From contig CAXXHO010000004.1 in NCBI GenBank assembly GCA_963667725.2, forward strand, positions 64,001-128,000: a stretch of DNA of 64,000 bases. Reading direction: 5' to 3'. A program made the position numbers and the translations under genes. The notes under the pieces were generated by a model, which was given only the letters and a program-made list of their open reading frames with translations, did no database searches and was not told where the DNA came from. The stretch is from Treponemataceae bacterium. Its GTDB lineage: Bacteria > Spirochaetota > Spirochaetia > Treponematales > Rectinemataceae. Below, in pieces: positions 1 to 43,192 of this stretch (position 1 is the first letter of the stretch; each line of letters opens with the position of its first letter).

Positions 1-106
1 GGCGGCGTCGTGGGGGACGCCGCAAGCGCGCCGGGTGGGGGAGGTCGCGGCGGAATTTTTGCGGGATTTCTTTTACTTTACTGAACATTAGTGTAGAGTA
101 TCGCTG

Positions 107-790
107 ATGAAATTCGAGGATATCGTCCGAACCTTCGGCGACAAGCCCTGGTTCGACTTCGAGATGGCGCACCTCGTCTCGGGCGAGGCGGCGCCGTGCG
201 TCCATACGGAACTCTACCGCTGGCGGCAGGCGGGCAAGCTCGTCGAGCTGCGGCGGGGATTCTTCACGCTGGCCGAGCCTTGGCGGCGCCGTTCCCTGGA
301 CGGGGCGGAGCTGGCGGGGGGGCTGTACGAGCCCTCCTACCTGTCGGGGAGCTGGGCGCTGGCGAGGCTGGGAGCCTTGCCGGCGCCCGCGGGGCACACC
401 CCTGAAGGCTTGCCCCGCTACACCTCGGCGACGACGCGTCCGGCCGCGGTCTTTGAGAACGCCTTGGGGCGGTACGAGTACGCGGCGCTGCCGAGGGATT
501 TGATGTTCGGGATGACGCCCAGGGGCAATGGCGGCAGCGGCGGCAGCGGGGCGCCCGCGATAGCGGGCGCCGCCTGCGTTGCCACTCCCGAAAAGGCGCT
601 GCTGGACTGGTGGCTCATTGAAGGCGGAGACTGGGACGAGGGCCGCATGGAGGCCGCTGCTCTGAATCCAACGCCCATTAACCTTGAGCGGCTGAAGGCG
701 GCGGCGGACCGCGCGGGCCGTCCCAGGCTCGCGAAAGCGGTGCGGGCCTTCCGCCGCTACGCGGCGCGGAAAGGAGCGGCGCAATGCTGA
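107..790 (+). CDS. abiEi: AbiEi-like type IV TA antitoxin / transcriptional regulator
   Basis: N-terminal wHTH-like 'LYRWRQAGKLVELRRG', then 'LYEPSYLSGSWAL' and 'ATPEKALLD' motifs; overlaps the downstream AbiEii-like gene. Confidence 0.8.
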   Translation: MKFEDIVRTFGDKPWFDFEMAHLVSGEAAPCVHTELYRWRQAGKLVELRRGFFTLAEPWRRRSLDGAELAGGLYEPSYLSGSWALARLGALPAPAGHTPEGLPRYTSATTRPAAVFENALGRYEYAALPRDLMFGMTPRGNGGSGGSGAPAIAGAACVATPEKALLDWWLIEGGDWDEGRMEAAALNPTPINLERLKAAADRAGRPRLAKAVRAFRRYAARKGAAQC

Positions 791-1242
791 AAGACGAGAT
801 GCTCGCGCTGGCGGCCGCGGTTCCCGACTCCGAGGGGAAGCGCGCCGTCTTGCGGGATTGCCTGCAGGCCTCGGTGCTGCGGTCCTTCCACGAGGCCGAG
901 GCCTTCCTGTCCGTGGCGATCGCAAGCGAGGGCGCGGCGGGCCTCGAGTTCGCCCTTCTGGACAAGAAAGACTACAAGCCCGAGCGCTGGCTCTTCGCGG
1001 CCAAGCGCCGACTCTGGTTCATGGGGCTTGATCCGCGCATAGCCTTCGCGCGCAAGCTCTCGGTCCACCAGGGCTGGGTCAAGGTGCCCGGCCTCCTGGC
1101 GGAGGCGGGGCTGCCCGAGGACGCCGCGGATCCGCTGGGGGTCAGGATTCAGATCGCTTTGGCGCCGCCCGAGCATTGTGGTACCTCAGTGGCCATCGTG
1201 GAACGCTTTGGGCTGCGGTTTGGGATTAAGAGGACAGGATGA
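784..1242 (+). pseudogene. abiEii: Degenerate, truncated AbiEii-like nucleotidyltransferase toxin
   Basis: 'LRDCLQASVLRSFHEAEAF' resembles the AbiEii N-terminus, but the GGT...RxSxDLDF motif is absent. Only 152 aa; the stop codon lies inside hairpin repeat 1. Confidence 0.65.
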
Positions 1243-1396
1243 CGGGACCGGACAGGATTTACTGGGAGAATGTTTTTGGGTTAGGAGAACGCGCGGCTCT
1301 TCTCGCAGCCTGTCTCGTTTACCTATTTCTTTTCTTCTCTTTCTTTCTTAACCATAAGCTTTTTCCTGTCAGTCCTGATGGTCCTGTTGTCCTGTC
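1233..1396 (+). repeat. Long hairpin repeat, copy 1
   Basis: GACAGGATGAC...GGGTTAGGA...TCTTAACC...GTCCTGTTGTCCTGTC. Confidence 0.95.
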
Positions 1397-2075
1397 GTAG
1401 TATTCACGCCGATAAAGCCTAGGTAGGTGTCGCGGTTGACGCACTCGAAACCGGCGCCGGGATACGCGGCGGTCCAGGAAGCGGGCGGCCGGAGCGTCCG
1501 TTTGGCGAGCTTGAACTCGAAGCCGGCGAGGTTGCCTTCCGACTCCTCGACATAGTCGAGTTCGGCTCCCGTATGCGTGCGCCAGAACCATGCGCCGCCG
1601 TGCCAGCCCCGATAGGCGTTGTGCTTTCTCCGCTCGCCGACGAGGAAGTTCTCCCAGAGAGCGCCCTTGTCCGGCCTTAGCTCCCAGTCCTTGAAATCAT
1701 CGATCAGCGCGTTCCTGATTCCGTTGTCGTAGAAATAAATCTTGTCCTTGCGGGTCACTTCTTTCCTGAGGTTCCTGCCGTAGCCGCCGAGGCGGAAGAC
1801 GACAAAGGCCTTTTCGAGCAGGTCGATATAGGAGATCACCGTGTCGGCGCTCATGGAAGTTTGCCGGCCCAGTTCTTGATAGGAGACTTCAGATCCCACC
1901 TGATAGGCCAGGAGGCGCAGGAGGTCCCGAAGCTTGCGCGGGTTGCGGATGCCGCCCAGCTCGAGGACAGCTTCTCGCCAAGTTCGGGAAAGGCGATCGG
2001 ATAGAGCGTATAGGTTCGGGCGATGGAGAGGCTTGAGCGATCGCTCGACGTTCGGGATCGGTCCTAGTAGATGTT
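1369..2075 (-). pseudogene. Deletion remnant of an AAA_14/DUF4143 ATPase (paralog of 6947..8137)
   Basis: 3' half nearly identical to 6996-7568; 5' half reduced to short fragments; start codon lost. Confidence 0.9.
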
Positions 2076-2120
2076 ATGGCGCGATTTCATCGACTATGAA
2101 AGATGAAATGGTGAGAATTG

Positions 2121-2284
2121 GACAGGATGACAGGAATGGGACAGGATTAACAGGAAAGAGTTTTTGGGTTGGGAAAGAGGACACAGTGCGCTTCTCGGAG
2201 TTTGGCGCGGTTACCTATCGCCGCGCTTCTCTTTCTTGAGCAAAGGCGCTTTCCTGTGAGTCGTGGGGGTCCTGTCGTCCTGTC
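2121..2284 (+). repeat. Long hairpin repeat, copy 2 (loop type B)
   Basis: Same arms as copy 1 with a different central loop. Confidence 0.95.
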
Positions 2285-2285
2285 T

Positions 2286-2312
2286 AAAAGTTAAAAAATG
2301 GGGTCTGACCCC
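2286..2312 (+). repeat. Short REP-like motif AAAAGTTAAAAAAT-GGGGTCTGACCCC
   Basis: 13-bp palindrome with an A-rich leader; recurs at 3836, 8329, 9777, 15654 (minus strand), 21296 and 30684. Confidence 0.9.
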
Positions 2313-2315
2313 CTC

Positions 2316-3656
2316 TTAACGGCGCGCCAGCTTATTATTGACCGTATCCTTGTCGAAGCGATCCGGTGCCCAGCGGATCCTGGGAGCCGGCGAGGCGAAC
2401 AGCGTGGCCGAGGCTTCAGCACGAAGTTCCTTATAACCCTCGATGCCGCCGCAGTCTTCGGGGGGAGTAGCCATGGCGCCGTCCAGGCAGACGCAGCAGG
2501 AGGTCCAGGCTTCCTCGTCTTGGAACTTTTCCCGCGCCTTCACTTTTATGGAATGCACCCAGTCGTCGCCAAAATCGTAGGTGTATTCGAGCGTATGGCC
2601 CACCTTGAGCCTCAGTTCGTCGAGGCTGACGATATCGTCGGCGATGATCACTCGCTCCTCGTCGTCCGAGAGTTCGCCGAATATCGCATGGTCATAGCGA
2701 AACTCATGGAGGTGATAGTCTTCCCAGCCGAAGGCGTCCTGCAGGCAGCGATGGAGGTCGGCGAGGGTCCGGTTGCCGGGAATCCGGAGGGTTCTGAAGA
2801 TGCGCGGCTTGGTTCCTCGCAGGGCGACTTCCAGCACATAGCTGTACTTCGAGGGCATGTACCCCTGGCGGGAGAGGGTGGCATGGTTGGAATCACGGCC
2901 TTTCGCCGGTATTTTCCTGGCGTGCCGCCGAGAGGACATAAGGGCTTCCAGGTCATCGAGGGTGGCTAGGTACGCTTTAAGGCTGGCGTTGCCTTGTTTC
3001 AGCACTTCGGCGAGGCGCGCTTTATCGGAGCGCAGCGGCTCATCGAGCTGGTGGCACAGGTTGAGGAGCTCGTTCATTTTAACGAGGTGCGCGGCAAGCT
3101 GTTTTTCTTCAGCTTCCGATGCATCCTCCAGGCTGTGGCGGACGATGCGCATCCAGAGAAGGAAGCGTTCGAAAATATCCATCAGGGCTTCGCGGAGGTA
3201 GTTTGCCTGCGGGATCTCGATGATGGAGAAATCGATGGTATCGAGGAAAGCCTCCGCCGCGCCGCGCGCGCAGGCTCTTAGCGCTTTGCGCCCGGATTCA
3301 GGAATTCCCGTGAAACAGAGGCCCACGAGCGTTCGATCGATCGCCTTTTCAATGAGGCTTTCCCGAAGGGCCGAGTCCGATGCAAGCTTTTTCTTGGTGA
3401 ATGTGCCGATTGCCGCATAGTGTCCGAGTTCGACGGCGAGGAAGTGTTCGATATCGGCCGCATCCACCGATAGATCGTATTCCTCGGCGAGGTCATGAAA
3501 GGGATCCAGGGAAGGCAATGCGCCCTTGGTGATGTCCTGAAACATTTCCTGCATGAGGGCAAGCTCTTTGTCGGAGAGCCCCTCCAGCATGGCGTTGCAG
3601 GCATTGGTTATGGCCGCAGCATCGAGTGGGTCTTTGCTCTTTTTCATGGTTCCCAT
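2316..3656 (-). CDS. pRiA4b ORF-3 family protein with long N-terminal extension (copy A)
   Basis: C-terminal 'TLADLHRCLQDAFGWEDYHLHEF...YTYDFGDDWVH...PPEDCGGIEGY'. Confidence 0.85.
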   Translation of the reverse strand: MGTMKKSKDPLDAAAITNACNAMLEGLSDKELALMQEMFQDITKGALPSLDPFHDLAEEYDLSVDAADIEHFLAVELGHYAAIGTFTKKKLASDSALRESLIEKAIDRTLVGLCFTGIPESGRKALRACARGAAEAFLDTIDFSIIEIPQANYLREALMDIFERFLLWMRIVRHSLEDASEAEEKQLAAHLVKMNELLNLCHQLDEPLRSDKARLAEVLKQGNASLKAYLATLDDLEALMSSRRHARKIPAKGRDSNHATLSRQGYMPSKYSYVLEVALRGTKPRIFRTLRIPGNRTLADLHRCLQDAFGWEDYHLHEFRYDHAIFGELSDDEERVIIADDIVSLDELRLKVGHTLEYTYDFGDDWVHSIKVKAREKFQDEEAWTSCCVCLDGAMATPPEDCGGIEGYKELRAEASATLFASPAPRIRWAPDRFDKDTVNNKLARR

Positions 3657-3712
3657 GGGTGTTTACTTTATGCTGGTTCTTTGGTTTTTGCCAGAAGGTT
3701 TCTTGGGATGTG

Positions 3713-3833
3713 GACAGGATGACGGGACTGGACAGGATTTACGGGAAGGAGTTATGGGTTAGGAGGGAGCGCGGCTCTTCTTTCTTAGCTAAAAGCTTTT
3801 TCCTGTGGGTCCTGGGAGTCATGGGATCCTGTC
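3713..3833 (+). repeat. Long hairpin repeat, copy 3 (short loop), followed by a GGGGTCAGACCCC motif ending at 3862
   Basis: Arms conserved, loop shortened. Confidence 0.9.
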
Positions 3834-3853
3834 CTAAAAGTTAAAAATTGGGG

Positions 3854-5221
3854 TCAGACCCCATTTAGCAACCTTTCGGATTGTTCAACGAGGTAGAGGG
3901 GGAGGGAGAGAAGCTTAAAGGGCTGAGAGGGTTTCCCCGCGATCGAGGTCGTGGACTCAAGGCAAGAAGGCACGTCGTCGTTGAAACGCAACCCCAAGGA
4001 AGCGTTTTTCTCCTGGAGGAACACCTGGAGCGACCTGAGACGGCCTGTCTTGCCCGCCTTGACTTCGACGGGAACAACCCGGCTTCCCTGCTGGATGAGA
4101 TAATCCACTTCGGCCGTGGATCCCTTGTTCCGCCGGTTCCAATAGAAAAGCGAAGGCTCGTGATAGAACCCATTCCGGTATAAAAGATGCTGACCGATGA
4201 ACTGCTCCGCCATGGCGCCGGAATTGACAAGCGTCATATCCCTATCGCGCGGAAAGTCGGCTGCGTTGAGACCCAGAAAAGACGCCAGAAGCCCGATATC
4301 CAGAAAAACAAGTTTGAAGGATGAAGGATGGACCTCGGCTCCAAGGGGAATCCCGTTCCCATCCGAATGGAACACCCTGAACACGAGGCGCGCCTTCTCC
4401 AACAGATCCAGGCTCTCTCGCACCTGGATCGATCGAGCGAGAGGATTGAGGCTCGAGTATTTCGCCGTCTTGCCGATCGTCGCGGGAATATTCTTGAAGA
4501 CTGCCTGCAGCATCGGAACATCGGCTTTTCGCTTATACTTGCTGAAATCGGCATAGTAGGTGAGCAATAGGTTGCTCTGCGCGCGCGACGCGGCTTTCAA
4601 GTCCAGATCCGATTCTATGAAAGCCTTTACCACCCCCGGCAAGCCCCCAACCAGGAAGTACTCCCTCATGCAGGCTCGCGCCTTGGCATGAAGCGCTTCG
4701 GGAAGGCTTTGCGGAATTCGGTATTCGGAAAGGTACTCGCGCAGCTGCTCCTGTCCGCGAGCCAGGAGGAATTCCTCAAAACTCATGGGCCCCAGATACA
4801 TGAATTCGATTCTTCCGACGGGAACGGAATATTCCGGCGCGCCGAGCGAGAAATCCAAGAGGGAGCCCGCGGCGATCACATGGAGTTCCGGCATTTTTTC
4901 GTAGAAATAGCGGAGCTTGGCGAGAACCGCGGGAACCGCTTGAATTTCATCAAGGAAAAGAAGGGTCTTCCCCGGGACTATCTTCTCGGAAGCATCGACT
5001 TCGATAAGCCGCACGATGGTCCGGACATCAGGCTCGTCGAAAAGGCTCGCTTTTTCGGGATCTTCATCGAAATTGATTTCCACGACCGAATCGAATGCCT
5101 GGCGCGCGAAGATCCGCACAAGCTCCGTTTTTCCCACTTGCCGGGCTCCGCGCAGTACGAGAGGTTTTCTGTCGGGCCTTACGCGCCACTGCGCGAGAAA
5201 ATCGAAGGCGAAGCGTATCAT
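3854..5221 (-). CDS. AAA_14 ATPase with DUF4143 C-terminal domain
   Basis: Walker A GARQVGKT, Walker B LFLDEIQ, 'VGGLP', C-terminal 'EVDYL...PVEVKAG'. Confidence 0.9.
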   Translation of the reverse strand: MIRFAFDFLAQWRVRPDRKPLVLRGARQVGKTELVRIFARQAFDSVVEINFDEDPEKASLFDEPDVRTIVRLIEVDASEKIVPGKTLLFLDEIQAVPAVLAKLRYFYEKMPELHVIAAGSLLDFSLGAPEYSVPVGRIEFMYLGPMSFEEFLLARGQEQLREYLSEYRIPQSLPEALHAKARACMREYFLVGGLPGVVKAFIESDLDLKAASRAQSNLLLTYYADFSKYKRKADVPMLQAVFKNIPATIGKTAKYSSLNPLARSIQVRESLDLLEKARLVFRVFHSDGNGIPLGAEVHPSSFKLVFLDIGLLASFLGLNAADFPRDRDMTLVNSGAMAEQFIGQHLLYRNGFYHEPSLFYWNRRNKGSTAEVDYLIQQGSRVVPVEVKAGKTGRLRSLQVFLQEKNASLGLRFNDDVPSCLESTTSIAGKPSQPFKLLSLPLYLVEQSERLLNGV

Positions 5222-5228
5222 GAAATTG

Positions 5229-5257
5229 ATTATGCACTATTTACCTAGTATTTTCAA
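5229..5257 (-). promoter_or_regulatory. Sigma70-type promoter for a probable leaderless mRNA
   Basis: On the minus strand: TTGAAA-17 nt-CATAAT-7 nt-ATG. Confidence 0.7.
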
Positions 5258-5285
5258 CATTTTTTGCTATTATTATAGGATATTT

Positions 5286-5453
5286 GACAGGATGACAGGA
5301 ATGGGACAGGATTAACAGGAAAGAGTTTTTGGGTTAGGAAGGAGAACGCGCGGCTCTTCTCGCAGCCTGTCTCGTTTACCTATTTCTTTTCTTCTCTTTC
5401 TTTCTTAACCAAAAGCTTTTTCCTGTCAGTCCTGATGGTCCTGTCGTCCTGTC
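5286..5453 (+). repeat. Long hairpin repeat, copy 4
   Basis: Loop nearly identical to copies 1 and 5. Confidence 0.95.
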
Positions 5454-6748
5454 GCCTTATTGAGCAGGGAGAGCGCGTAGAGGGGGATGTTCGTCAGCCA
5501 GCTTTGTTCGCGGTAGGGCGACAGCGAGGTTCGAAAAGCGCGCGGGGGCGAAAACTTGTCGTAATAGACGCGGAGGCTCTTGGCTTGCAGGTTTTCCGCC
5601 GCTTTTACTTCGAGGGGGTAAACAGAACCTTGGGCCTGAAGCAAAAAATCGACCTCAGCCCGGGAGGTGTCGCTCGACCAGTATGAGGCATCCATTTCTT
5701 CCATGAGACACAATTCCTGCGCGACATATTGCTCGGTCAGCGCGCCCTTGAATTCCTCGAAAAGGGCGTTCCCCCGCAATACCGCCTGCATCGGCAAGCC
5801 CGCATGCGCCGCCAGCAGCCCGATATCAAGCATGTAGAGCTTGAACGCGTTGAGCTCCTGATATGCCTTGAGCGGAAGCCCGGGCTTCGAGACTCTGAAG
5901 ATTTTGCGCGACAAGCCCGCATCGCAAAGCCACTCGATCGCGGATTCATATTCTCTCGCCCTGGCGCCCTCGCGGACGAGTCCGTACACGAATTTTTTCT
6001 GTTCCCGGGCCAATTGGGCCGGCAGGGAATTCCAGACCGCCCGGATCCGAGGGACCGTGTCTGGTTTCGCGTATTTCGAAAAATCCCGTTCATAGGCTTC
6101 AAGCAGCGCTTTCTGGAAGACGCGGACCTTGTCGAGATCCTTGGTTTCCACGAAGGTGACCACGCTCTCCGGCATGCCGCCGACGCAATAGTAATAGCGC
6201 AGGGATTCGGTCAGCTTTTCCCTGAACGCATCGATCATGGACCAGTCGCCTGATGCGACAAGGTCCGCCAGCTCAGGCTCGCCGATGGCTTTCAAGAATT
6301 CCAGGAAGGAGAGCGGATAGAGATTCAAGAAGTCGACTTTGCCGACGGGGAAGGAAGTGTCCGCATGCAGCGAGATCCCCAGGAGCGATCCTGCCGCGAT
6401 AAGGTGGTACTGGGGAGCATTCTCATAAAAATACTTGAGCGAGGTGAGGGCCTTTGGGTTCGCCTGGACTTCGTCGAATACGATGAGCGTCTTTTCAGGC
6501 TCGATGGGCACGCCCGTCTCCACGCGCAAGCCCATGAGGAGGCGCGCAGGGTCCACGTTGGAGGAGAAAAGCGTTGTCATACGCTCATTGGACTCGAAAT
6601 TTATATAGGCGATGTTTTGGTAGATGCTTTTGCCGAATTCTTTGAGCAGCCATGTTTTGCCGACTTGGCGGGCGCCGTTCAGGACGAGAGGTTTTCTGCG
6701 CGGATCACGTTGCCACGCCAGCAGGGCTGAGAGGGCTTTTCTTTCCAT
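5426..6748 (-). CDS. AAA_14 ATPase with DUF4143 domain
   Basis: GARQVGKT, IVFDEVQ, VGGMPE, EVDFL...PLEVKA; last residues encoded by repeat 4. Confidence 0.9.
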   Translation of the reverse strand: MERKALSALLAWQRDPRRKPLVLNGARQVGKTWLLKEFGKSIYQNIAYINFESNERMTTLFSSNVDPARLLMGLRVETGVPIEPEKTLIVFDEVQANPKALTSLKYFYENAPQYHLIAAGSLLGISLHADTSFPVGKVDFLNLYPLSFLEFLKAIGEPELADLVASGDWSMIDAFREKLTESLRYYYCVGGMPESVVTFVETKDLDKVRVFQKALLEAYERDFSKYAKPDTVPRIRAVWNSLPAQLAREQKKFVYGLVREGARAREYESAIEWLCDAGLSRKIFRVSKPGLPLKAYQELNAFKLYMLDIGLLAAHAGLPMQAVLRGNALFEEFKGALTEQYVAQELCLMEEMDASYWSSDTSRAEVDFLLQAQGSVYPLEVKAAENLQAKSLRVYYDKFSPPRAFRTSLSPYREQSWLTNIPLYALSLLNKATGRQDHQD

Positions 6749-6769
6749 ACTATAAGTGTATTGCGGGTC

Positions 6770-6797
6770 ATCACAAAAGTGTAGCCTCTTTTGTGAT
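6770..6797. promoter_or_regulatory. Inverted-repeat operator candidate upstream of the ATPase gene
   Basis: ATCACAAAAG-N8-CTTTTGTGAT. Confidence 0.55.
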
Positions 6798-6830
6798 TAG
6801 TTGAACAAAAGTCGTACAAGTTTTGTGTTT

Positions 6831-6995
6831 GACAGGATGACAGGAATGGGACAGGATTTACAGGTAGGAGTTTTTGGTTAGGAAGGAGAACGCGGCTCTT
6901 CTCGCAGCCTGTCTCGTTTATTTATTTCTTTTCTTCTCTTTCTTTCTTAACCAAAAGCTTTTTCCTGTGGGTCCTGACGGTCCTGTCGTCCTGTC
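6831..6995 (+). repeat. Long hairpin repeat, copy 5
   Basis: Conserved arms and type A loop. Confidence 0.95.
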
Positions 6996-8137
6996 TTAGT
7001 ATTCACGCCGATAAAGCCTAGGTAGGTGTCGCGGTTGACGCACTCGAAACCGGCGCCGGGATACGCGGCGGTCCAGGAAGCGGGCGGCTGGAGCGTCCGT
7101 TTGGCGAGCTTGAACTCGAAGCCGGCGAGGTTGCCTTCCGACTCCTCGACATAGTCGAGCTCGGCTCCCGTATGCGTGCGCCAGAACCATGCGCCGCCGT
7201 GCCAGCCCCGATAGGCGTTGTGCTTTCTCCGCTCGCCGACGAGGAAGTTCTCCCAGAGAGCGCCCTTGTCCGGCCTTAGCTCCCAGTCCTTGAAGTCGTC
7301 GATCAACGCGTTCCTGATCCCGTTGTCGTAGAAATAGACCTTATCCTTGCGGGTCACTTCTTTCCTGAGGTTCCTGCCGTAGCCGCCGAGCCGGAAGACG
7401 ACAAAAGCCTTTTCAAGCAGGTCGACATAGGAGATCACCGTGTCGGCGCTCATGGAAGTTTGTCTGCCTAATTCCTGATATGAGACTTCCGATCCCACTT
7501 GATAGGCCAGAAGGCGCAGGAGATCCCGAAGCTTCCGCGGGTTGCGGATGCCGCCCAGCTCGAGGACATCCTTGTACAGGTATGCGGAACTCAATTCCAG
7601 AAGGTGCGCGACTTTGTCGGCTTTCGCGCCCATGCTGAAAAGCGCGGGATACAGCCCGAGCACGAGGCATTCGGGCAGACTCCCCTCGAGCTCGAAGGGA
7701 GACAGCTTTTCGCCAAGCTCGGAAAAGGCGATCGGATAGAGCGTATAGGTCCAGGTTCGCCCCGTGAGTGCTTCGGTGGCGGTTCGGGCGATGGAGAGGC
7801 TCGAGGAGCCCGTCACCAGGAGCGAGCCGGGGAAGCCTTCGTCGTAGAGCAGCTTGAGCGCCCGCTCGACGTTCGGGATGTGCTGCGCCTCGTCGACGCA
7901 GACGAGATCGAAGCCGGCGATTTGCCCTTTGATCATGCGAAGATCGCTCGAAGCCCAGAGCTCCTGTACGCGCGGATCCTCGCCGTTGACCATGATGGTT
8001 TTGCCTTCGAAGCTCCGCATCGCAGCCCGGGCAAGGGTTGTCTTGCCGCATTGCCGAGGCCCATAAAGAAGCACTATGCGCCGGTCGGTCCGCAGGCGGT
8101 GCTGGAGTATCCCTAAGAGCGCTCTATCGATGTTCAT
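6947..8137 (-). CDS. AAA_14 ATPase with DUF4143 domain
   Basis: GPRQCGKT, CVDEAQ, TGSSS, GALWEN, ELDYV...FEFK. Confidence 0.9.
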   Translation of the reverse strand: MNIDRALLGILQHRLRTDRRIVLLYGPRQCGKTTLARAAMRSFEGKTIMVNGEDPRVQELWASSDLRMIKGQIAGFDLVCVDEAQHIPNVERALKLLYDEGFPGSLLVTGSSSLSIARTATEALTGRTWTYTLYPIAFSELGEKLSPFELEGSLPECLVLGLYPALFSMGAKADKVAHLLELSSAYLYKDVLELGGIRNPRKLRDLLRLLAYQVGSEVSYQELGRQTSMSADTVISYVDLLEKAFVVFRLGGYGRNLRKEVTRKDKVYFYDNGIRNALIDDFKDWELRPDKGALWENFLVGERRKHNAYRGWHGGAWFWRTHTGAELDYVEESEGNLAGFEFKLAKRTLQPPASWTAAYPGAGFECVNRDTYLGFIGVNTKTGRQDRQDPQEKAFG

Positions 8138-8144
8138 AATAGAT

Positions 8145-8181
8145 ATTATAACGCGATTTCATCGACTATGGAAGATGAAAT
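8145..8181 (-). promoter_or_regulatory. -10 box plus inverted-repeat operator candidate
   Basis: TATAAT 7 nt upstream of the ATG; ATTTCATC-N10-GATGAAAT at 8156-8181. Confidence 0.6.
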
Positions 8182-8192
8182 TGTGTGAATTG

Positions 8193-8326
8193 GACAGGAT
8201 TTACAGGTAGGAGTTTTGGGTTAGGAAGGAGAGCTCGGCTTTTCTCCTAACCCTTTTTTATATTCTCTTTTCTTCTCTTCTCTTTCTTAACTAAAAGCTT
8301 TTTCCTGCTAGTCCTGGGATCCTGTC
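8193..8326 (+). repeat. Long hairpin repeat, copy 6, followed by a GGGTCAGACCCC motif ending at 8354
   Basis: Shorter arms, same core. Confidence 0.9.
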
Positions 8327-8357
8327 GTAAACTTCAAAATTAGGGTCAGACCCCGCT

Positions 8358-9698
8358 TTAACGACGCTCCAGCTTTTTGTTGACCGCGTCTTTGTCGAAG
8401 CGCTCCGGGACCCAGCGAATCCTGGGAGTCTTGGGGACGAACAGCGTGGCCGATGCCTCCGCTCGGAGTTCCTTATAGCCCTCGATGCCGCCGCAGTCTT
8501 CGGGGGGAGCGGCCATGGCGCCGTCCATGCAGACGCAGCGGGAAGTCCAGGCTTCCTCGCCTTGGAGCTTGTCCCGCGCCTTTACTTTTATAGAATGCAC
8601 CCAGTCATCACCGAAATCGTAGGTGTATTCGAGCGTATAGCCTACCTTGAGCCCAAGCTCGTCGAGGCTGACGATGTCGTCGGCGATGATCACGCGTTCC
8701 TCCTCATCCGAGAGCTCGCCGAATATCGCATGGTCATAGTGAAACTCATGGAGGTGATAGTCTTCCCAGCCGAAGGCGTCCTGCAGGCAGCGATGGAGGT
8801 CGGCGAGGGTCCGGTTGCCGGGGATGCGGAGGGTTCTGAAGATGCGCGGCTTGGTTCCCCGCAGGGCGATTTCCAGCTCATAGTAATACTTCGAGGGTAT
8901 GTACCCCTGGCGGGAGAGGGTGGCATGGTTGGAATCACGGCCTTTCGCCGGTATTTTCCTGGCGTGCCGCCGAGAGGACATAAGGGCTTCCAGGCCATCG
9001 AGGGTGGCGAGGTACGCTTTAAGGCCGGCCTGGCCTTGTTTCAGCACTTCGGCGAGGCGCGCTTTGTCGGAGCGCAGTGTTTCGTCGAGCTGATAGCACA
9101 GGTTGAGGAGCTCGTTCATTTTGGCGAGGTGCGTGGCGAGCTGTTTTTCTTCAGCTTCAGACGCTTCGTCCAGGTTGTGGCGAACGATGCGCATCCAGAG
9201 AAGGAAGCGTTCAAAAATCTCCATAAGGGCTTCGCGGAGATAGTTTGCCTGCGGGTTCTCAATGATGGAGAGATCGATGCCATCGAGGATGGCCTCCGCC
9301 GCGCCGCGCGCGCAGAGCCTCAGCGCTTTGCGTCCGGATTCGGGAATGCCCGTTACGCAGAGGCCCACGAGCGTTCGATCGATCGCACTTTCCATGAGCC
9401 GTTCCCGAAAGGCCGGGTCGGAGGCGAGCTTTTTCTTGGTGAGTTTGCCGATTGCCGCATAGTGTCCGAGTTCGACGGCGAGGAAGTTTTCAATATCGGC
9501 CGCATCAACCGAAAGGTCGTATTCCTCGGCGAGGTCGTGAAAGGGGTCGCGGGAGGGCAATGCGCCCTGGGTGATGTCTTGAAGCATTTCCTGCATGAGG
9601 GCCAGCTCTTTATCGGAGAGTCCCTCCAGCATGGCATTGAAGGCATTGCCGATCGTCGCGGCATCGAGGGGGTCTCTGCTCTTTTTCGTGGTTCCCAT
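8358..9698 (-). CDS. pRiA4b ORF-3 family protein (copy B)
   Basis: Colinear 446-aa paralog of 2316..3656. Confidence 0.85.
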   Translation of the reverse strand: MGTTKKSRDPLDAATIGNAFNAMLEGLSDKELALMQEMLQDITQGALPSRDPFHDLAEEYDLSVDAADIENFLAVELGHYAAIGKLTKKKLASDPAFRERLMESAIDRTLVGLCVTGIPESGRKALRLCARGAAEAILDGIDLSIIENPQANYLREALMEIFERFLLWMRIVRHNLDEASEAEEKQLATHLAKMNELLNLCYQLDETLRSDKARLAEVLKQGQAGLKAYLATLDGLEALMSSRRHARKIPAKGRDSNHATLSRQGYIPSKYYYELEIALRGTKPRIFRTLRIPGNRTLADLHRCLQDAFGWEDYHLHEFHYDHAIFGELSDEEERVIIADDIVSLDELGLKVGYTLEYTYDFGDDWVHSIKVKARDKLQGEEAWTSRCVCMDGAMAAPPEDCGGIEGYKELRAEASATLFVPKTPRIRWVPERFDKDAVNKKLERR

Positions 9699-9739
9699 GG
9701 GTGTTTACTCTATGATGTTTCTTTGGTTTTTGCCAGAAG

Positions 9740-9804
9740 GTTTTCCTGGTAGTCCTGATGGTCCTGCTATCCTGTTAAAAAGTTGAAAATTGGGGTCTGA
9801 CCCC
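9740..9804 (+). repeat. Right-arm-only copy of the long repeat plus GGGGTCTGACCCC motif
   Basis: TTTCCTGGTAGTCCTGATGGTCCTGCTATCCTGT-AAAAAGTTGAAAATTGGGGTCTGACCCC. Confidence 0.8.
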
Positions 9805-9808
9805 GAAG

Positions 9809-11122
9809 CTAGAGCGCCCACCAGGGGATGGCGGTGACTGTGTCGCTTATGCGAAGGGGATACGGGGCACGGCAAACGATGTATCCCTGAGGCGCGACGG
9901 CCTTATGATCCTGCAGGAACGCCTCGAGATGGCGCGCATCCTTTTTTGTCGGGTTTTCCGTCCATTTCACCTCTATCGGGACAAGCGCTCCCGCACGCTC
10001 CACGATAAAATCAATCTCAGCTCCGCCCGCGGTGCGATAATAGCTGAGTTTCGCGTCTCCGCGATAGGCAAGCCTCTTATAGAGCTCTATGCCCACCCAT
10101 TGTTCAAAAAGAGGGCCCGGGTTCGCGAGCACCGTGTCCGGACCGAAGGAAAGCCCCGCCAGCGCATTCCGCACGCCGAGATCGATGAAAAAGAATCGGG
10201 GGCTGGAAAGCGCGGTCTTGCGCGGGCTTCCGGAAAAAGCGGGTACCGTGAATCCAAGAAACATGTCCTCGAGAAGCTGATAATGCGCCTTGATCGTGGG
10301 CGAGGAGACTCCCGATTCTTTGGCGATCCCTGAAAAGTTGACAATGCTCCCCGATTCGGCGGCCGCGAGCGACAAGAATCGCAGGAAAGGCCCCCACGCC
10401 CTTATCTGCGCTTCCCGATGAAGCTCCTCCTCGACATACGCGCCCGCATAGGCGCGAAGCACGTCGCTCCTATCGGAGCGCTCGACCGCAATTCCGGGAA
10501 GATCGCCAAAAGTCATCCTATCCTCGAGGCTCCTCGGCGGAAAGGGTATCTTCAGGGAAGGTTCATCCTGAAGACAGGGAAGCAGGCTTCGCCTTCCGGC
10601 GAGTCGGTCGATAGGATATCCCACGGGGATCGTTTGTTCGTACTCGGCGCTGGTGAGCGGATAGAGTCGATGCATGAAGCTTCTGCCGGGGAGCAAATTG
10701 GCGCCGATGCGCCTGAGCCGCCGCGCCGAGCTCCCGCAAAGTATGAAACGGCTGCGCCGCTCTTCCGGCAAAATTCGTTTTTCCTCATCGTAAAGAAATT
10801 GGACCGCATCGAAAAGCTCCGGTACGGTTTGGGCCTCGTCAAGGAAGACCCATCGCGGAGTACCCGCGCGAGGGTTCCCCGAATCGGGGAGCGCTCGGTA
10901 AAGATCGATGAACCTCCCGGGAGCGGCGGCGAACCGCATCCGCAGGGAGGGATCGGAAAAATCGAAGACGAGCGCATCGGAGGGAATACAGCTTCTAATG
11001 AGCGTCGATTTCCCCGTTTGACGAGCGCCGAACATGATATGGACATAGGGCGCCGCCAATTTTTTAGAAAACTCCCCGAAATAAAGTCGATCGAACAGTT
11101 CCATATCCGAATCATCGAACAT
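9809..11122 (-). CDS. AAA_14 ATPase with DUF4143 domain
   Basis: GARQTGKS, FLDEAQ, CGSSARRL, EIDFI...PIEVKW. Confidence 0.9.
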   Translation of the reverse strand: MFDDSDMELFDRLYFGEFSKKLAAPYVHIMFGARQTGKSTLIRSCIPSDALVFDFSDPSLRMRFAAAPGRFIDLYRALPDSGNPRAGTPRWVFLDEAQTVPELFDAVQFLYDEEKRILPEERRSRFILCGSSARRLRRIGANLLPGRSFMHRLYPLTSAEYEQTIPVGYPIDRLAGRRSLLPCLQDEPSLKIPFPPRSLEDRMTFGDLPGIAVERSDRSDVLRAYAGAYVEEELHREAQIRAWGPFLRFLSLAAAESGSIVNFSGIAKESGVSSPTIKAHYQLLEDMFLGFTVPAFSGSPRKTALSSPRFFFIDLGVRNALAGLSFGPDTVLANPGPLFEQWVGIELYKRLAYRGDAKLSYYRTAGGAEIDFIVERAGALVPIEVKWTENPTKKDARHLEAFLQDHKAVAPQGYIVCRAPYPLRISDTVTAIPWWAL

Positions 11123-11195
11123 TTGCCCAGAATTGTAAACTATTACTTTAAATAATTTGAGTATTTTTAAAGTGTTGCTTTTAATTTGTTGACAA

Positions 11196-11374
11196 GACAG
11201 GATTACAGGATGGGACAGGATTTACAGGAAGGAGTTTCGGGTTAGGAAAGAGGACGCTGCGCGCTTCTCGGAGCTTGGCGCGGTTACCGCGGTTACCTAT
11301 CGCTGGACTTCTCTTTCTTGACCAAAGGCGCTTTCCTGTAGGTCCTGAAGGTCCTGTCGTCCTGTCGTCCTGTC
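11196..11374 (+). repeat. Long hairpin repeat, copy 7 (loop type B)
   Basis: Conserved arms with an extra GTCCTGTC unit. Confidence 0.95.
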
Positions 11375-11460
11375 CTTGGGCTTCTTGAATTACGGGAAGC
11401 CGCGGAGATACTTAAACTTATCGGAGTTTCCATTTTCCACGCATCACCGCCTGGGAGGAA

Positions 11461-12438
11461 ATGATGAACAAAAAGGCTACCCGGCATTTTGGATTCCCGT
11501 CGATCATCCTGGCGCTCCTCGCGCTGGCGGCATGGGGCGCGCTGGCCGCCTGCAGCCTGGACACCTACGAACCCAAGGAAAACGAAGTGAAGGTGACCAT
11601 CTCGGGCCTGGGCGACAAGGCCGTCCTTGCCCGCGAAAGCCTTGGCGCCGAGAAGGCGCGGGGCTTCGCGGCGTCCTGGGTGAAGGTGGCGGTGATCGAC
11701 GGCGACGGCGCCCAAACCGGATCGGGCAGCCTCGCCCTGGAGAACGGCGTCTGGGAAGGCTACGTCCAGCTGTCCGGCCCGGGCGCGATGACCTTCATCG
11801 TCTCCGCCGGAACGGCGGCAGACCAGGTCTCGTGGATGGGCAACGGCGCCCTGACCGTCGGCGGGAAAGGCCAGGAGATCACCGTGACGGTGACGGTGCC
11901 CGCCCTCGGCGCGAAGGGCCCCGCCGGCGGCTCGATCTTCTACGACAAGGGCAGCTACTCGAACGGCTGGCGATACCTGGAAGCCTCGCCCACCGACACC
12001 GCGGCGACGGCCTCCGTTTCCGACAATGGGTACCGGCTCTGGGCGGCCCAGACAACCTATGTCGTGGGCAACACCTACGCGGGGATCGGCTACGGCAAGG
12101 AGAACACGGACTGGATCCAGGCCGCGGGCAACGCCACGATGTACCCGGCCGCCTGGTATTGCGCCGAATTGGAATGCGGCGGCGCGGCCGACTGGTTCCT
12201 GCCCTCGTGGGACGAGCTTGCCGAGATGCGGAAGGTCATCGGCCACGCCGGCTTCCATGTCGAGTATCAAGGCGCCTTTTGGTCTTCGACCGAGCGGACG
12301 GCCCTGGACGGCGGCACGGACGCGGCCTACTACGTCTACACAGACGCCTACAAGACGACGAAGGGTCCGGCGCTGAAGACCAACGCGGACGTGTACGTGA
12401 AGGCCGCGCGGCGGTTTTTATGTAAGAGGACAGGATGA
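11461..12438 (+). CDS. Lipoprotein with DUF1566/C-type-lectin-like C-terminal domain
   Basis: Signal peptide with lipobox LAAC; 'GPAGGSIFYDKG...WRYLEA', 'DWFLPSWDEL', 'FWSSTE', 'VKAARRF'. Confidence 0.7.
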   Translation: MMNKKATRHFGFPSIILALLALAAWGALAACSLDTYEPKENEVKVTISGLGDKAVLARESLGAEKARGFAASWVKVAVIDGDGAQTGSGSLALENGVWEGYVQLSGPGAMTFIVSAGTAADQVSWMGNGALTVGGKGQEITVTVTVPALGAKGPAGGSIFYDKGSYSNGWRYLEASPTDTAATASVSDNGYRLWAAQTTYVVGNTYAGIGYGKENTDWIQAAGNATMYPAAWYCAELECGGAADWFLPSWDELAEMRKVIGHAGFHVEYQGAFWSSTERTALDGGTDAAYYVYTDAYKTTKGPALKTNADVYVKAARRFLCKRTG

Positions 12439-12593
12439 CGGGAATGGGACAGGATTTACTGAGAGAATGTTTTTGGGTTAGGAAAGACGACGTTGTGCGC
12501 TTCTCGGGGACTGGCACGGTTGCCTATCGCCGCGCTTCTCTTTCTTGACCAAAGGTTCTTTCCTGTAGGTCCTGATGGTCCTGTCGTCCTGTC
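12429..12593 (+). repeat. Long hairpin repeat, copy 8 (loop type B)
   Basis: Conserved arms; supplies the stop codon of the lipoprotein gene. Confidence 0.95.
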
Positions 12594-12645
12594 AGATTCC
12601 CGAAGAGGGAGCCGGACCATCGGGCTGGCTGCGCTAGCGCTTCAG

Positions 12646-12984
12646 TCATGCCTTTGAGAGTTCGTTTTCAAGCGCTTTCTGCATGAGCTGGTTCAGGGAG
12701 ATCCCCTGCTCCACCGCCGTTCGCTTTGCTCTTTTATGCAGTTCGGGCGATATTCTCACGTTGAAGCTTCCCTTATAGGATTTTTCAGTTTCCTTTTCCT
12801 CTCGCTTGCAGGTTTCAAGATAGTCTTCAACGGATTCCTTAAAGGCGGATTTGAGGGCGTCGACGCTTTTCGCCTCAAAGGTCACCAAGTCGTCTATCCC
12901 TTCCAGCTTGCCATAGAAGATTTCGTCTTCAGCGCAGTAATGTACCGAGCCCATATAGTCTTTATAGGTAAGAACGTCTTTCAT
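12646..12984 (-). CDS. hicB: HicB family antitoxin (orphan)
   Basis: 'YKDYMGSV...FYGKLEGIDDLVTF...VEDYL...YKGSFNVRISPELH...GISLN'. Confidence 0.9.
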   Translation of the reverse strand: MKDVLTYKDYMGSVHYCAEDEIFYGKLEGIDDLVTFEAKSVDALKSAFKESVEDYLETCKREEKETEKSYKGSFNVRISPELHKRAKRTAVEQGISLNQLMQKALENELSKA

Positions 12985-12998
12985 TGTCTTTATTATAC

Positions 12999-13157
12999 GA
13001 CAGGACTACGGGATGGGACAGGATTTACAAGAAGGAGCTTTTAGGTTAGGAGGGCGCGCGGCGCTTATCGGAGCCTATTTAGGTTATGCATACTTGCTCT
13101 TCTCTTTCTTAACCAAAGGTTCTTTCCTGTAGGTCCTGATGGTCCTGTCGTCCTGTC
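12999..13157 (+). repeat. Long hairpin repeat, copy 9
   Basis: Conserved arms, divergent loop. Confidence 0.9.
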
Positions 13158-13537
13158 GTGGTTTTGGGCGTGTAGTCGCGGTACTTGCGCTTGAAGGTGA
13201 TGTCCTGGGGGCCGAAGTTGATCACGAGGCCGGTGGGGGTGTCCGTGGCCTTGAGGTAGTTCACGAGCTGGACTTCGTGGGCTTTGGCGATGGCCTCGAC
13301 GGCTTTGAGCTCGAGGATCACGCGGCCTTTGACGATGACGTCGGCGAAGAAGGAGCCGATGACGGTTCCGTCGTAGAAGACGTCGATGGGCGCCTCGATG
13401 ATGAAGGGCAAGGCGGCTTTGTGCAGTTCCATGGCCATGGCTTGCTTGTAGACGGATTCCAGGAAGCCGGCGCCGAGGGTGTTGTACACCTTGAACGCGC
13501 ACCCGATGATTTTTTCCGTGAGCGGGTCGTCGATCAT
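13109..13537 (-). CDS. GxxExxY protein (PD-(D/E)XK nuclease superfamily)
   Basis: 'LGAGFLESVY', 'ADVIV...ILELKA', 'QLVNYLKAT...GLVINFG'. Confidence 0.92.
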   Translation of the reverse strand: MIDDPLTEKIIGCAFKVYNTLGAGFLESVYKQAMAMELHKAALPFIIEAPIDVFYDGTVIGSFFADVIVKGRVILELKAVEAIAKAHEVQLVNYLKATDTPTGLVINFGPQDITFKRKYRDYTPKTTTGRQDHQDLQERTFG

Positions 13538-13581
13538 GCTAATATTCCGCGCAAAGATAGGGCTCTTGATTCAAATAATTG

Positions 13582-13744
13582 GACAGGACGACAGGAATGG
13601 GACAGGATTCACAGGAAGCGTTTTTGGGTTAAGAGAGCGCGCGGCTCTTCTCTTAACCCTTTTTCATTTTCTCCGCTCTTCTCTTCTCTTTCTTTCTTAA
13701 TCAAAAGCTTTTTCCTGTCAGTCTTGGGGTCCTGTTATCCTGTC
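13582..13744 (+). repeat. Long hairpin repeat, copy 10
   Basis: Conserved arms; supplies the stop codon of the CocE gene. Confidence 0.95.
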
Positions 13745-25117: not shown

Positions 25118-25301
25118 GACAGGACGACAGGAGGGGACAGGATTTACAGGAAATGTGTTTAGGTTAAGAGAACACGCGGCTCTTCTCTTAACCCTTTTTT
25201 TATTTCCATTTCTTCTCTTCTCTTTCTTTCTTAACCAAAAGCTCTTTCCTGTCAGTCCTGAGGAGTCCTGGGATCCTGTCGTGGAGTCCTGTCGTCCTGT
25301 C
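25118..25301 (+). repeat. Long hairpin repeat, copy 11
   Basis: Lies between divergent genes; extra arm units. Confidence 0.95.
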
Positions 25302-25355
25302 CTCTTCACGGGCTTGAGGATTGTTGCCTGAGGCGAAGCATTGTATCCTTCCCGC

Positions 25356-26588: not shown

Positions 26589-26767
26589 GACAGGACGATA
26601 CGACAGGACGACAGGACTAGACAGGATCTACAGGAAATGTGTTTGGGTTAAGAGAACGCGCGGCTCTTCTCCTAACCTTTTTTTTAATCTTTTCTTCTCT
26701 TCTCTTCTCTTCTCTTTCTTAACCAAAAGCTCCTTCCTGTCAGTCCTGTGTTTCCTGTCGTCCTGTC
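26589..26767 (+). repeat. Long hairpin repeat, copy 12
   Basis: Fills almost the whole gap between convergent genes. Confidence 0.95.
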
Positions 26768-30565: not shown

Positions 30566-30586
30566 ACAGGAAGCTTAATGCAGTCT

Positions 30587-30620
30587 ATGACCAAACGCAA
30601 GTCTACTTGCGTTTGGTCAT
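30587..30620. promoter_or_regulatory. Perfect 16-bp inverted repeat upstream of the ATPase gene
   Basis: ATGACCAAACGCAAGT-CT-ACTTGCGTTTGGTCAT. Confidence 0.65.
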
Positions 30621-30656
30621 GACGAAACGAAAATAGACTTACTTTTTTAGCGGTCG

Positions 30657-30709
30657 ATCCTGACAGTCCTGCCATCCTGTCCAAAAGTCAAAATTGAGGT
30701 CTGCCCCCA
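30657..30709 (+). repeat. Degenerate right arm of the long repeat plus degenerate short motif
   Basis: ATCCTGACAGTCCTGCCATCCTGTCC-AAAAGTCAAAATTGAGGTCTGCCCCC. Confidence 0.7.
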
Positions 30710-30711
30710 GG

Positions 30712-40630: not shown

Positions 40631-40689
40631 CGGATTAGTGTAACCCGACCGGCGAGTACTGACCAGGGGCCTCATCCGGAGCGTCGCTC

Positions 40690-43140: not shown

Positions 43141-43192
43141 GGCCCATCACCCCTGGCCTCACCAGCCACCCAAGTCCCGACAATCACGCCGA

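Follow-up and report, generated by a model that had tools for sequence, protein, structure and literature searches.

A hairpin-delimited array of candidate defence genes in Rectinemataceae and its putative link to the GxxExxY protein family

Introduction

How can a row of single genes be assembled and rearranged between copies of a long hairpin in the absence of an integrase, and which enzyme, if any, serves the hairpin? The question is raised by the window analysed here, a stretch of 64,000 nt from a Rectinemataceae bin. An earlier note, made from the sequence alone, had taken the array for an integron-like shuffling platform or, alternatively, for a REP/MITE-like element that fills intergenic gaps. 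The array on the window's contig (C4) was compared with matching loci on two other contigs of the same mixed bin (C5 and C6), with other genomes of the family and with metagenomes. The comparisons point to an undescribed integrase-free way of swapping gene modules. They also draw attention to the GxxExxY protein encoded in the last unit, whose widespread family is listed as function unknown in the available portion of PMC3424549.

Results

Ten near-full hairpins and one half copy cut positions 1233-13744 of the window into ten one-gene units (Table 1). The earlier note had counted ten full copies and one half, and this count was correct except that R3 is shortened internally and R6 is without its outer left arm. 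Array copies are 121-179 nt in length. Their arms are tandem words of 9-10 nt which form one stem of 120-180 nt. The left-arm pattern was matched nine times in the window and not once in 100 shuffles, and the ten near-full copies folded on the plus strand with z-scores of −2.6 to −7.4 (30 dinucleotide shuffles each). Copies fold better on one strand, as G-T wobbles differed between strands by 184 to 42 over 34 copies and, for each of the ten array copies taken singly, by 6-10 to 0-1; cargo mRNAs of the array do not contain the strand that folds better. The hairpins are mosaics with ragged ends and a variable number of arm words, with a median likeness of 73% and a median exact stretch of 17 nt. 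Double changes were found in just 2 of 17 consensus pairs. No target duplication was present at 36 of the 41 copies in the bin (2 nt at four, 3 nt at one), in line with the earlier note. Rfam covariance models applied to positions 1-40000 gave two weak microRNA matches only, far below gathering scores.

Table 1. Features of the array and its surroundings (window coordinates).
Feature	Position	Strand	Remarks
AbiEi-like gene	107-790	+	left neighbour
Short partner gene	784-1242	+	only weakly similar to AbiEii; stop codon inside R1
Hairpin R1	1233-1396	+	
Unit 1, remnant copy of unit-5 ATPase (DUF4143)	1369-2120	-	five internal deletions; stop codon inside R1
Hairpin R2	2121-2284	+	
Half REP-type palindrome	2286-2312		fused to R2
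Unit 2, pRiA4b ORF-3-like protein	2316-3656	-	446 aa; paralog of unit 6
Hairpin R3	3713-3833	+	short loop
Half REP-type palindrome	3836-3862		supplies unit 3 stop codon
Unit 3, ATPase B	3854-5221	-	AAA_14+DUF4143; PADLOC candidate PDC-S01
Hairpin R4	5286-5453	+	
Unit 4, ATPase C	5426-6748	-	AAA_14+DUF4143; PDC-S01; stop codon inside R4
Hairpin R5	6831-6995	+	
Unit 5, ATPase A	6947-8137	-	AAA_14+DUF4143; PDC-S01; stop codon inside R5
Hairpin R6	8193-8326	+	outer left arm lost; then half REP-type palindrome ending 8354
Unit 6, pRiA4b ORF-3-like protein	8358-9698	-	446 aa
Half hairpin R7	about 9741-9775	+	right arm only; plus half REP-type palindrome, to 9804
Unit 7, ATPase D	9809-11122	-	AAA_14+DUF4143; PDC-S01
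Hairpin R8	11196-11374	+	
Unit 8, predicted lipoprotein	11461-12438	+	weak Lcl_C below cut-off; stop codon inside R9
Hairpin R9	12429-12593	+	
Unit 9, orphan HicB antitoxin	12646-12984	-	
Hairpin R10	12999-13157	+	
Unit 10, GxxExxY (TIGR04256, PF13366)	13109-13537	-	PD-(D/E)XK fold; stop codon inside R10
Hairpin R11	13582-13744	+	contains stop codon of flanking CocE/NonD hydrolase gene
Two further hairpins around MASE3-GGDEF gene	25118-26767	+	conserved on C6
Outlying DUF4143 ATPase	29417-30710	-	half hairpin and degenerate half REP
Solitary hairpin	36811-36973	+	

Two features had been missed by the earlier note. A second palindrome, of REP type, is present as a half copy at four array junctions, and further hairpins lie outside the array at about 25118, 26589, 30644 (half) and 36811. 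At the site of the outlying DUF4143 ATPase, which has no hairpin at its left junction, C6 carries a lone full hairpin.

Profile matches agreed with the gene order and the one gene per interval that had been read from the open reading frames; nine genes lie on the minus strand, as reported, and unit 8 alone on the plus strand. No integrase or transposase family was matched by the ten array and three flank proteins scanned, as the earlier note had held. The cargo appears to consist mostly of PDC-S01 ATPases; PDC-S01 is a candidate anti-phage system, and the assignment is a profile match only. In the bin, 15 of 21 DUF4143-type ATPase matches lie at most 300 nt from a hairpin. The stop codon is taken from the hairpin in five of ten cargo genes and in both flank genes. 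Of 42 gene 3' ends directed towards a hairpin, 37 terminate within it or no more than 40 nt away (crude ORF calls). A sigma-70 scan of the array gave 6 sites against 4.0 ± 2.2 by chance. A TAnnnT hexamer stands 6-9 nt before the ATG in six of nine intact genes, and a seventh has TTGAAA-17-CATAAT. These raw counts may point to leaderless promoters, and the proposal that most units have a promoter of their own gained little from the scan.

Unit content and order on C6 and C5, the comparison proposed in the earlier note, differ from the window, and those of hairpin arrays in several other genera vary. Unit 3 is 93% identical in amino acid sequence to one C5 unit, and unit 4 is common to C6 (98%) and C5 (88%). 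Homology of units ends mostly inside hairpins; that of unit 4 to C6 both starts and ends within them. The AbiEi-like/partner pair is itself bounded by hairpins on C5. Contigs from three other studies appear to be without units 1-3, and joints in which a hairpin connects the left flank with unit 4 were found in runs of three studies. In one relative (L139) the same 1857-nt unit is present three times. Units 5-10 are fixed in close strains at about 99% identity, and turnover is therefore slow. The C6 version keeps hicA in front of hicB; in the window hicA is missing, and the breakpoint of its loss lies 14 nt beyond a hairpin. Deletions of microhomology type can be seen in unit 1 and R7. No single or fixed crossover point was found within hairpins, and of 18 comparisons just 2, including one among the poor matches, had the same neighbouring gene beside the best-matching half. 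The idea of a shuffling platform thus stands as regards variable content and breakpoints, most of which lie inside the repeats; the static units 5-10, the hicA breakpoint and the hairpin halves, which are not cleanly linked to their neighbours, speak against a dedicated integron-like one. Joints that "go back" in assembled contigs are explained by near-identical repeat halves and were not counted as excised circles. Misassembly at R5 was suspected since depth steps down there in the likely source sample. It was ruled out by a metagenome contig (L221) which covers positions 6248-14215 at 98.9% and spans R5, so the join is real.

Hairpin copies are clustered, 33 of 41 in the bin lying within 1.6 kb of another copy, and do not occupy intergenic gaps across the whole genome. 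They are not equally dense between core genes genome-wide, the outcome that would have refuted the original idea. The hairpin was found in 31 of 68 other family genomes. In the family, each of the eight other genomes whose GxxExxY is at least 55% identical has 13-31 hairpin-model matches, against 3 of the other 60. Of 18 genomes whose GxxExxY proteins are all more distant, 16 gave no hairpin. Conversely, 23 of the 31 genomes with the hairpin lack this GxxExxY clade. An alignment search for GxxExxY was negative in all five genomes searched, including G002 and the hairpin-rich G005, G014 and G021 (94-97% complete). Most metagenome hairpin matches are solitary and without GxxExxY; the gene was present in the fetched DNA of only 5 of 122 loci with the arm pattern (45 of the 122 being about 630 nt or shorter), and just two loci were arrays.

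Unit 10 scored 136 bits with TIGR04256 (cut-off 35) and 132 bits with PF13366. Its residues D66, E76 and K78 are intact and invariant in 18 of 18 alignment rows, and its predicted fold is that of a PD-(D/E)XK nuclease (pLDDT 92.5). The fold search gave generic PD-(D/E)XK neighbours only (best Z 8.7, rmsd 2.7, 95 aligned), among which Cas4, lambda exonuclease and Hjc were not separable; it therefore picks no mechanism. Each of the two GxxExxY copies in the bin lies between two hairpins. In the window and on C5 the gene forms the terminal unit; in G069 it lies mid-array, and the C6 array has none. The same GACAGGA-type arms enclose close homologs from Clostridiales, Methanoregula, Verrucomicrobiota and Calditrichia (L060-L063, L065), and the window's arm words also enclose GxxExxY at L173 and L208. 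At all these loci the arm words of the hairpin are terminal repeats around GxxExxY, as in a MITE and its parent. A tandem arm word was found within 260 nt at 34 of 38 distinct GxxExxY loci. On the GxxExxY tree the arm word changed twice when coded as own word against any other (shuffle mean 10.7) and eight times with seven types (shuffle mean 16.9); in either coding none of 1000 label shuffles was as low. In these sequences the arm word tracks the tree. Because kin share labels, tree and genome correlations can also come from inheritance of a fixed neighbour. GxxExxY had been read as cargo; its arms and the clade co-variation favour it instead as the best candidate for the hairpin's cognate enzyme, with putative catalysis. 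No description of a pairing between hairpin and GxxExxY was found in a literature search that left subscription journals mostly outside its scope and did not cover supplements.

Discussion

We think it somewhat probable that the hairpins are gene-less derivatives of a GxxExxY element which were reused as recombination joints for defence units. The ancestral small element would have held a GxxExxY PD-(D/E)XK nuclease gene between two inverted arms of 9-10 nt tandem words, and the hairpin would be its non-autonomous form. In Rectinemataceae, copies may have become established in hypervariable regions at the 3' ends of genes, in this case where a surface-polysaccharide cluster ends. With many co-oriented copies 0.4-1.5 kb apart, recombination at hairpins could delete, duplicate or exchange each self-contained transcription unit between two of them, so that defence-type units would accumulate and slowly reorder. 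GxxExxY may bind and cut the folded hairpin and spread it, and its cuts may stimulate unit exchange, host recombination finishing the reaction. The observations behind this proposal are the repeat anatomy, the identity of the arms, the co-variation of arm word and clade, the variable content and order, and breakpoints lying mostly in hairpins. Counted against it are hairpin-rich genomes without GxxExxY, the C6 array without it, the static units 5-10 and the site of the hicA loss. The two ideas of the earlier note are probably stages of one process, the REP/MITE-like element being the likely origin of the hairpin. A less likely possibility is that the array represents a new class of gene-capture platform. 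The 126-residue nuclease would recognise the word-repeat hairpin of its own clade, folded from a single strand, insert it at gene 3' ends and drive excision and re-insertion of units, giving defence arrays parallel to integrons with unrelated sites and chemistry.

A dedicated integron analogue, in which GxxExxY, alone or with host factors, excises unit circles at one folded hairpin strand and inserts them at another hairpin, would account for the single transcription unit per interval, the stop codons and 3' ends at hairpins, the co-oriented copies with one better-folding strand and the position of GxxExxY at two array ends. The median exact stretch of 17 nt is also short for RecA by rules of thumb. 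We consider this reading unlikely. PD-(D/E)XK nucleases cut and are not known to have a ligating step; no circle was demonstrated among assembled contigs, no single crossover point was found, hairpin halves do not track their neighbours, and GxxExxY can lie mid-array or be missing. The better-folding strand is antisense to cargo in the bin's three arrays, a relation which did not hold in other genera, where 7 cases were antisense and 8 sense, with 4 ties. Applied to true attC sites, the strand metric was not clearly asymmetric (34 versus 26) and so is not validated as an attC-like signal. A passive hot spot is a rather unlikely explanation. Hairpins would then act at the RNA level, as 3' stabilisers or as stems for processing, or else be selfish repeats that another enzyme moves; GxxExxY would hitch-hike, and arrays would change by ordinary RecA or microhomology events amid high gene inflow. 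All three versions of the locus do adjoin a variable polysaccharide cluster, hairpins are found between housekeeping-like genes too (C5, C6 and C3), and the microhomology-type deletions and the solitary metagenome copies agree with it. It leaves unexplained why GxxExxY clades in unrelated phyla have their own arm words and why 16 of the 18 genomes restricted to other clades lack this hairpin, and the better-folding strand of the array is not contained in cargo mRNAs.

Movement of the units by a RAYT-REP system, with the hairpin as passenger of a Y1 HUH transposase, is highly improbable. The RAYT-like gene of the bin is flanked by the REP-type palindrome, not by the array hairpin. On C4 and C5 a Y1_Tnp gene between REP-type palindromes belongs to a comparable series of intervals with one gene each, and Y1/RAYT may have contributed the four REP-ended units locally. 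Its close relatives (87-95%) occur in 2 of 68 other family genomes against 31 with the hairpin, and it was rejected as a general driver; remaining Y1 matches are about 30% identical and distributed independently of the hairpin, and arrays in genera without this REP (G069, G061, G014) suggest content change at hairpins. Least credible is a CALIN, a cluster of attC sites without integrase served in trans by the integron integrase of the genome. The bin encodes three co-binned IntI copies (C5:550880, C1:34408, C7:37069), and long hairpins at gene 3' ends are attC-like in position. No integrase adjoins the array, the C5 copy being about 190 kb from it. The RYYYAAC...GTTRRRY pair was found in 0 of 42 hairpin copies and is absent from the array, whereas the same test found 12 attC sites beside the bin's integrases, none similar to the hairpin model. 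This positive control largely refutes the attC reading; judged by these motifs, the bin's real integron is elsewhere and its attC sites are unrelated to the hairpin.

For GxxExxY the locus supplies a candidate substrate together with an outcome that can be seen in the genome, namely defence-type genes in rows of variable composition. Should the link between the two hold, these arrays are a further route to modular bacterial defence arrays besides integrons and REPIN-RAYT, and a new place to mine anti-phage genes. The locus also offers several divergent PDC-S01 ATPases as self-contained units. Three co-binned versions and the code of arm word and clade make specificity directly and easily testable.

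MITEs are short non-coding elements with terminal inverted repeats which originate from autonomous gene-bearing forms. The hairpin resembles them, and MITE-flanked composites, in being short and non-coding with terminal inverted repeats and probably derived from such a form; it differs in its lack of target duplication at most copies, its ragged ends and the absence of a DDE transposase partner. In some 23S rRNA intervening sequences the loop that closes a long stem contains a small gene, comparable to the arm-gene-arm form in other phyla, whereas the hairpins here lie between protein genes, are mostly gene-less and are arrayed. As far as the available text of PMC5581495 describes REPIN-RAYT systems, these likewise combine many non-autonomous extragenic hairpins with a low-copy enzyme gene flanked by its own repeat, and the link between enzyme and repeat is indirect there as well. 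In the present case a PD-(D/E)XK-fold protein takes the place of the Y1 HUH enzyme, arms of tandem words build a stem of 120-180 nt instead of short palindromes, and copies cluster into cassette-like rows. Unlike integrons and CALINs, the array has no GTTRRRY core, integrase or attI/Pc, no fixed crossover point was found in it, and its units appear to have their own promoters. With sedentary chromosomal integrons and CALINs, as presented in the available portions of bioRxiv 10.1101/2024.07.02.601686 and PMC8876359, it shares co-oriented hairpin sites with one unit between them and a defence-rich cargo of variable content and order.

Structure of the hairpin array

The array in the window (see table) was found to consist of ten near-full hairpins and one right-arm-only copy, as the earlier note had read from the sequence. 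The hairpins are imperfect and 121-179 nt in length, starting with GACAGGA-nn-ACAGGA and ending with its reverse complement. The left-arm pattern occurred 9 times in the window and never in 100 shuffles, and folding of the ten near-full copies on the + strand gave z values of -2.6 to -7.4. No Rfam family matched the hairpin. As shown by ORFs and profile matches, each interval holds one gene, in the order that had been proposed: ATPase remnant, pRiA4b, ATPases B, C and A, pRiA4b, ATPase D, lipoprotein, HicB and GxxExxY (units 1 to 10). All four intact ATPases (AAA_14+DUF4143) matched the profile of the PADLOC candidate defence system PDC-S01. G+C content was 56% in the array versus 68% in the flanks. 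The stop codon was located inside a hairpin in 5 of 10 cargo genes and both flanking genes; four further cargo genes ended in, or not more than 5 nt from, a REP-type half-palindrome joined to the hairpin, and the HicB stop codon was 52 nt from a hairpin. Target duplications were absent at 36 of 41 copies, in agreement with the absence of a consistent duplication noticed before.

G-T wobbles in the arms of 34 related copies were polar, with 184 on one strand versus 42 on the other, and were symmetric in the three solitary copies of the window. The polarity was common to copies within an array (9/9 scored copies in G069, another family genome) and showed no tie to cargo direction across genera. 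The copies are mosaic, with a median likeness of 73% and longest exact stretches of 17 nt (median) to 72 nt (maximum), and no clean pattern was seen of hairpin halves following neighbour genes. These features fit repeated recombination or conversion with no fixed crossover.

Coordinates and descriptions of features in the window and related loci
Feature	Location	Description
Hairpin array	window 1233-13744	
Unit 1	window 1369-2120	Unit 5 copy that has lost five separate internal segments of ~33-206 nt each over a 700-nt span, with short microhomologies at several; promoter and 3' end retained
Stretch preceding orphan hicB	window 12984-12998	hicA replaced by 14-nt stretch; TATAAT 7 nt before ATG
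hicA adjoining GxxExxY	G012 (L088)	Also internally truncated
ATPase with half hairpin	window 29417-30710	At the site of a lone hairpin in C6; left junction without hairpin
Tandem repeats, ~111 nt	window 40685-43173	Two clusters; separate family unrelated to the hairpin
Y1_Tnp (RAYT-like) row	G000:C4:22831-29641 (L053); C5:693663-705916 (L056, L006)	One-gene intervals in polysaccharide cluster; several stop codons supplied by palindrome
Chromosomal integron	G000:C5:550880, C1:34408, C7:37069 (L050-L052)	Three co-binned versions with different cassettes
Metagenome contig L221	window 6248-14215	98.9% identity, order unchanged

Variation at the array locus

The bin G000 is mixed (6.3% contamination). 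On its contigs C4 (the window), C6 and C5 the same regions occur in three related versions that are ~77-99% identical, and the integron integrase is likewise present in three copies. The bin thus provides a built-in comparison of locus versions but leaves the window without a clean genome of its own. Comparison of the orthologous locus, which the earlier note had advised, revealed different content and order in the three versions. The C6 array has the flanks of the window array, the AbiE-like pair on one side and the CocE gene on the other. Its six hairpins (one partial) delimit five units, namely an FGE-domain lipoprotein plus small ORF, a protein of 179 aa, a further AAA_14 ATPase, ATPase C and the HicA-HicB pair. 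Two genes alone are in common with the window, ATPase C at 98% aa and HicB at 94%, and GxxExxY is missing. In the C5 version this AbiE-like pair precedes six ATPase units and GxxExxY, and the order of ATPases C and B is the reverse of that in the window. All three arrays are located at the end of a polysaccharide cluster, the genes of which differ. The idea that breakpoints fall within hairpins held for ATPase C, whose homology between the window and C6 ended inside hairpins on both sides, but not for hicB, whose homology ended at the ATG, 14 nt outside the tenth hairpin (R10).

Contigs of four runs were aligned to the window (likeness 90). Runs X5, X6 and X10, from three studies, contained two equal-depth joints that connect the left flank (position 1248), by way of a hairpin and a degenerate half REP, to position 5474 and so skip units 1-3; coverage over 1453-5324 was sparse in X6 and X10. 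Because the sides of these joints are short (30-55 letters) and the flank is diverged at that point, they may originate from a sister species. Units 5-10 were covered at ~99% identity in the same runs. The skipped and the near-identical units together point to a unit turnover that is real but slow and, in the compared strains, restricted to the left end. Units 1-2 duplicate units 5-6 and have diverged from them. In X1, the likely source sample, contig depth was 110-200 over window 1-6776 and 37-99 over 6777-14500; this step, at hairpin R5, suggests a second strain that is identical as far as R5 and differs from there on.

Distribution of hairpins and arrays

Within the bin, 33 of 41 near-full copies were 1.6 kb or less from another copy, a clustering at odds with the equal density between core genes that had been named as refuting a capture platform. 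The two chromosome-scale contigs (3.73 Mb) carried 18 copies, 15 of them in 110 kb of C5, and 15 of the bin's 21 DUF4143-type ATPase matches were within 300 nt of a hairpin. A covariance model, likewise suggested beforehand, had matches in 31 of 68 other family genomes, with match counts taken over both strands up to a ceiling of 41. Among 20 regions from relatives, hairpin rows with one or two genes per interval recurred in G069, G061, G005, G014, G046, G080 and G044, drawing in different orders on a common gene pool (ATPases, AbiE, HicAB, PIN, pRiA4b). A 1857-nt hairpin-plus-ATPase unit in G044 (L139, contig C167) is present in three tandem copies, reflecting either recent amplification or an assembly artefact. 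Only solitary copies were seen in two regions examined of G002, of the same genus. In metagenomes, at least 122 loci had the arm pattern (45 of them ~630 nt or shorter), including 44 hairpins, 5 loci with GxxExxY in the retrieved DNA and 2 arrays; arrays seem to be rare outside the family.

GxxExxY and its arm words

Among the best named matches of GxxExxY is one of 85% in a Rectinemataceae (Spirochaetota) genome; another 85% match is on a contig labelled Shapirobacteria, which is probably mis-binned. Homologs of 52-58% identity from Clostridiales, Methanoregula, Verrucomicrobiota and Calditrichia, and the metagenome loci L173 and L208, have an arm-gene-arm arrangement with the same word as the hairpin. 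More distant clades are enclosed by other words (CACGGAG/CACAGAG, CACCGAT, CGCGAA). After removal of 4 loci (2 partial, 2 without match) and 2 duplicates from 44 examined, 34 of 38 had a tandem word within 260 nt of GxxExxY, as a raw count with no shuffled background. On the GxxExxY tree the word changed 2 times (two-state) or 8 times (seven-state), against null means of 10.7 and 16.9, and 0 of 1000 shuffles was as low; the label of L092, seemingly wrong through the labelling script, was kept. Since kin share labels, this fit is no proof of co-evolution.

Arm-GxxExxY-arm units of other clades were seen by eye at the same operon junctions in several genera (L070-L075, L079; L080, L081, L085, L097, L098), which we take to precede a topoisomerase-like gene or to lie inside a lysine-fermentation-like operon; this suggests long vertical residence. 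Residues D66, E76 and K78 were kept in 18/18 alignment rows, and the predicted structure (pLDDT 92.5) has a generic PD-(D/E)XK fold. In PMC3424549 the function of the family is given as unknown.

Proposed mechanism and alternatives

We lean, with a little more than even confidence, towards hairpins that would derive from the GxxExxY element, be spread by it and settle at the ends of genes where inflow is high. Once settled they would act as joints, and self-contained units would be lost, duplicated or swapped there, possibly assisted by cuts of the GxxExxY nuclease; we infer all catalytic steps. Each of the 8 other family genomes whose GxxExxY reaches 55% identity, a threshold set afterwards to fit the tree clade, had 13-31 hairpin matches; a count of 13 was reached by only 3 of the remaining 60. 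Of the 18 genomes whose only GxxExxY was distant, 16 had no hairpin. What counts against dependence is that 23 hairpin-positive family genomes are without a member of this clade and that alignment search found no GxxExxY in G005, G014 and G021. A passive hot spot on which GxxExxY is a hitch-hiker is rather improbable.

The notion of an integron-like platform using a different site survived as to the site: the hairpin is without attC boxes. A dedicated integron-like reaction at hairpins is itself unlikely, though conceivable. RYYYAAC is the partner box in attC sites. RYYYAAC...GTTRRRY boxes were present in no hairpin copy, and the same test detected 12 attC sites of 113-126 nt beside three integrases as a positive control, ruling out the hairpin as an attC site. 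None of these 12 resembled the hairpin model, and with no box pair in the hairpins a CALIN can be practically dismissed. PMC8876359 gives GTTRRRY as the core. RAYT as the driver would find some room in a short palindrome, core GGGGTCWGACCCC, that on both C4 and C5 flanks the Y1_Tnp gene and separates single genes as well. Four array junctions consist of a hairpin plus half this REP-type palindrome, and some units therefore probably moved between the two kinds of row. But close relatives of Y1_Tnp were limited to 2 of 68 other family genomes, so that this enzyme cannot explain the hairpin family, and RAYT is very unlikely.

Relation to known systems

Our literature search found no description of the hairpin-GxxExxY pairing. 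The locus contributes one site in three versions, joints at strain level and a count across the family. With a putative role for the enzyme, we consider the array and GxxExxY a candidate new category; by defining tests it falls outside integrons, REPIN-RAYT systems and MITEs. In its working, the pairing of hairpin and GxxExxY is similar to the REPIN-RAYT pair as described in PMC5581495, and in its outcome the array is similar to integrons as portrayed in bioRxiv 10.1101/2024.07.02.601686.
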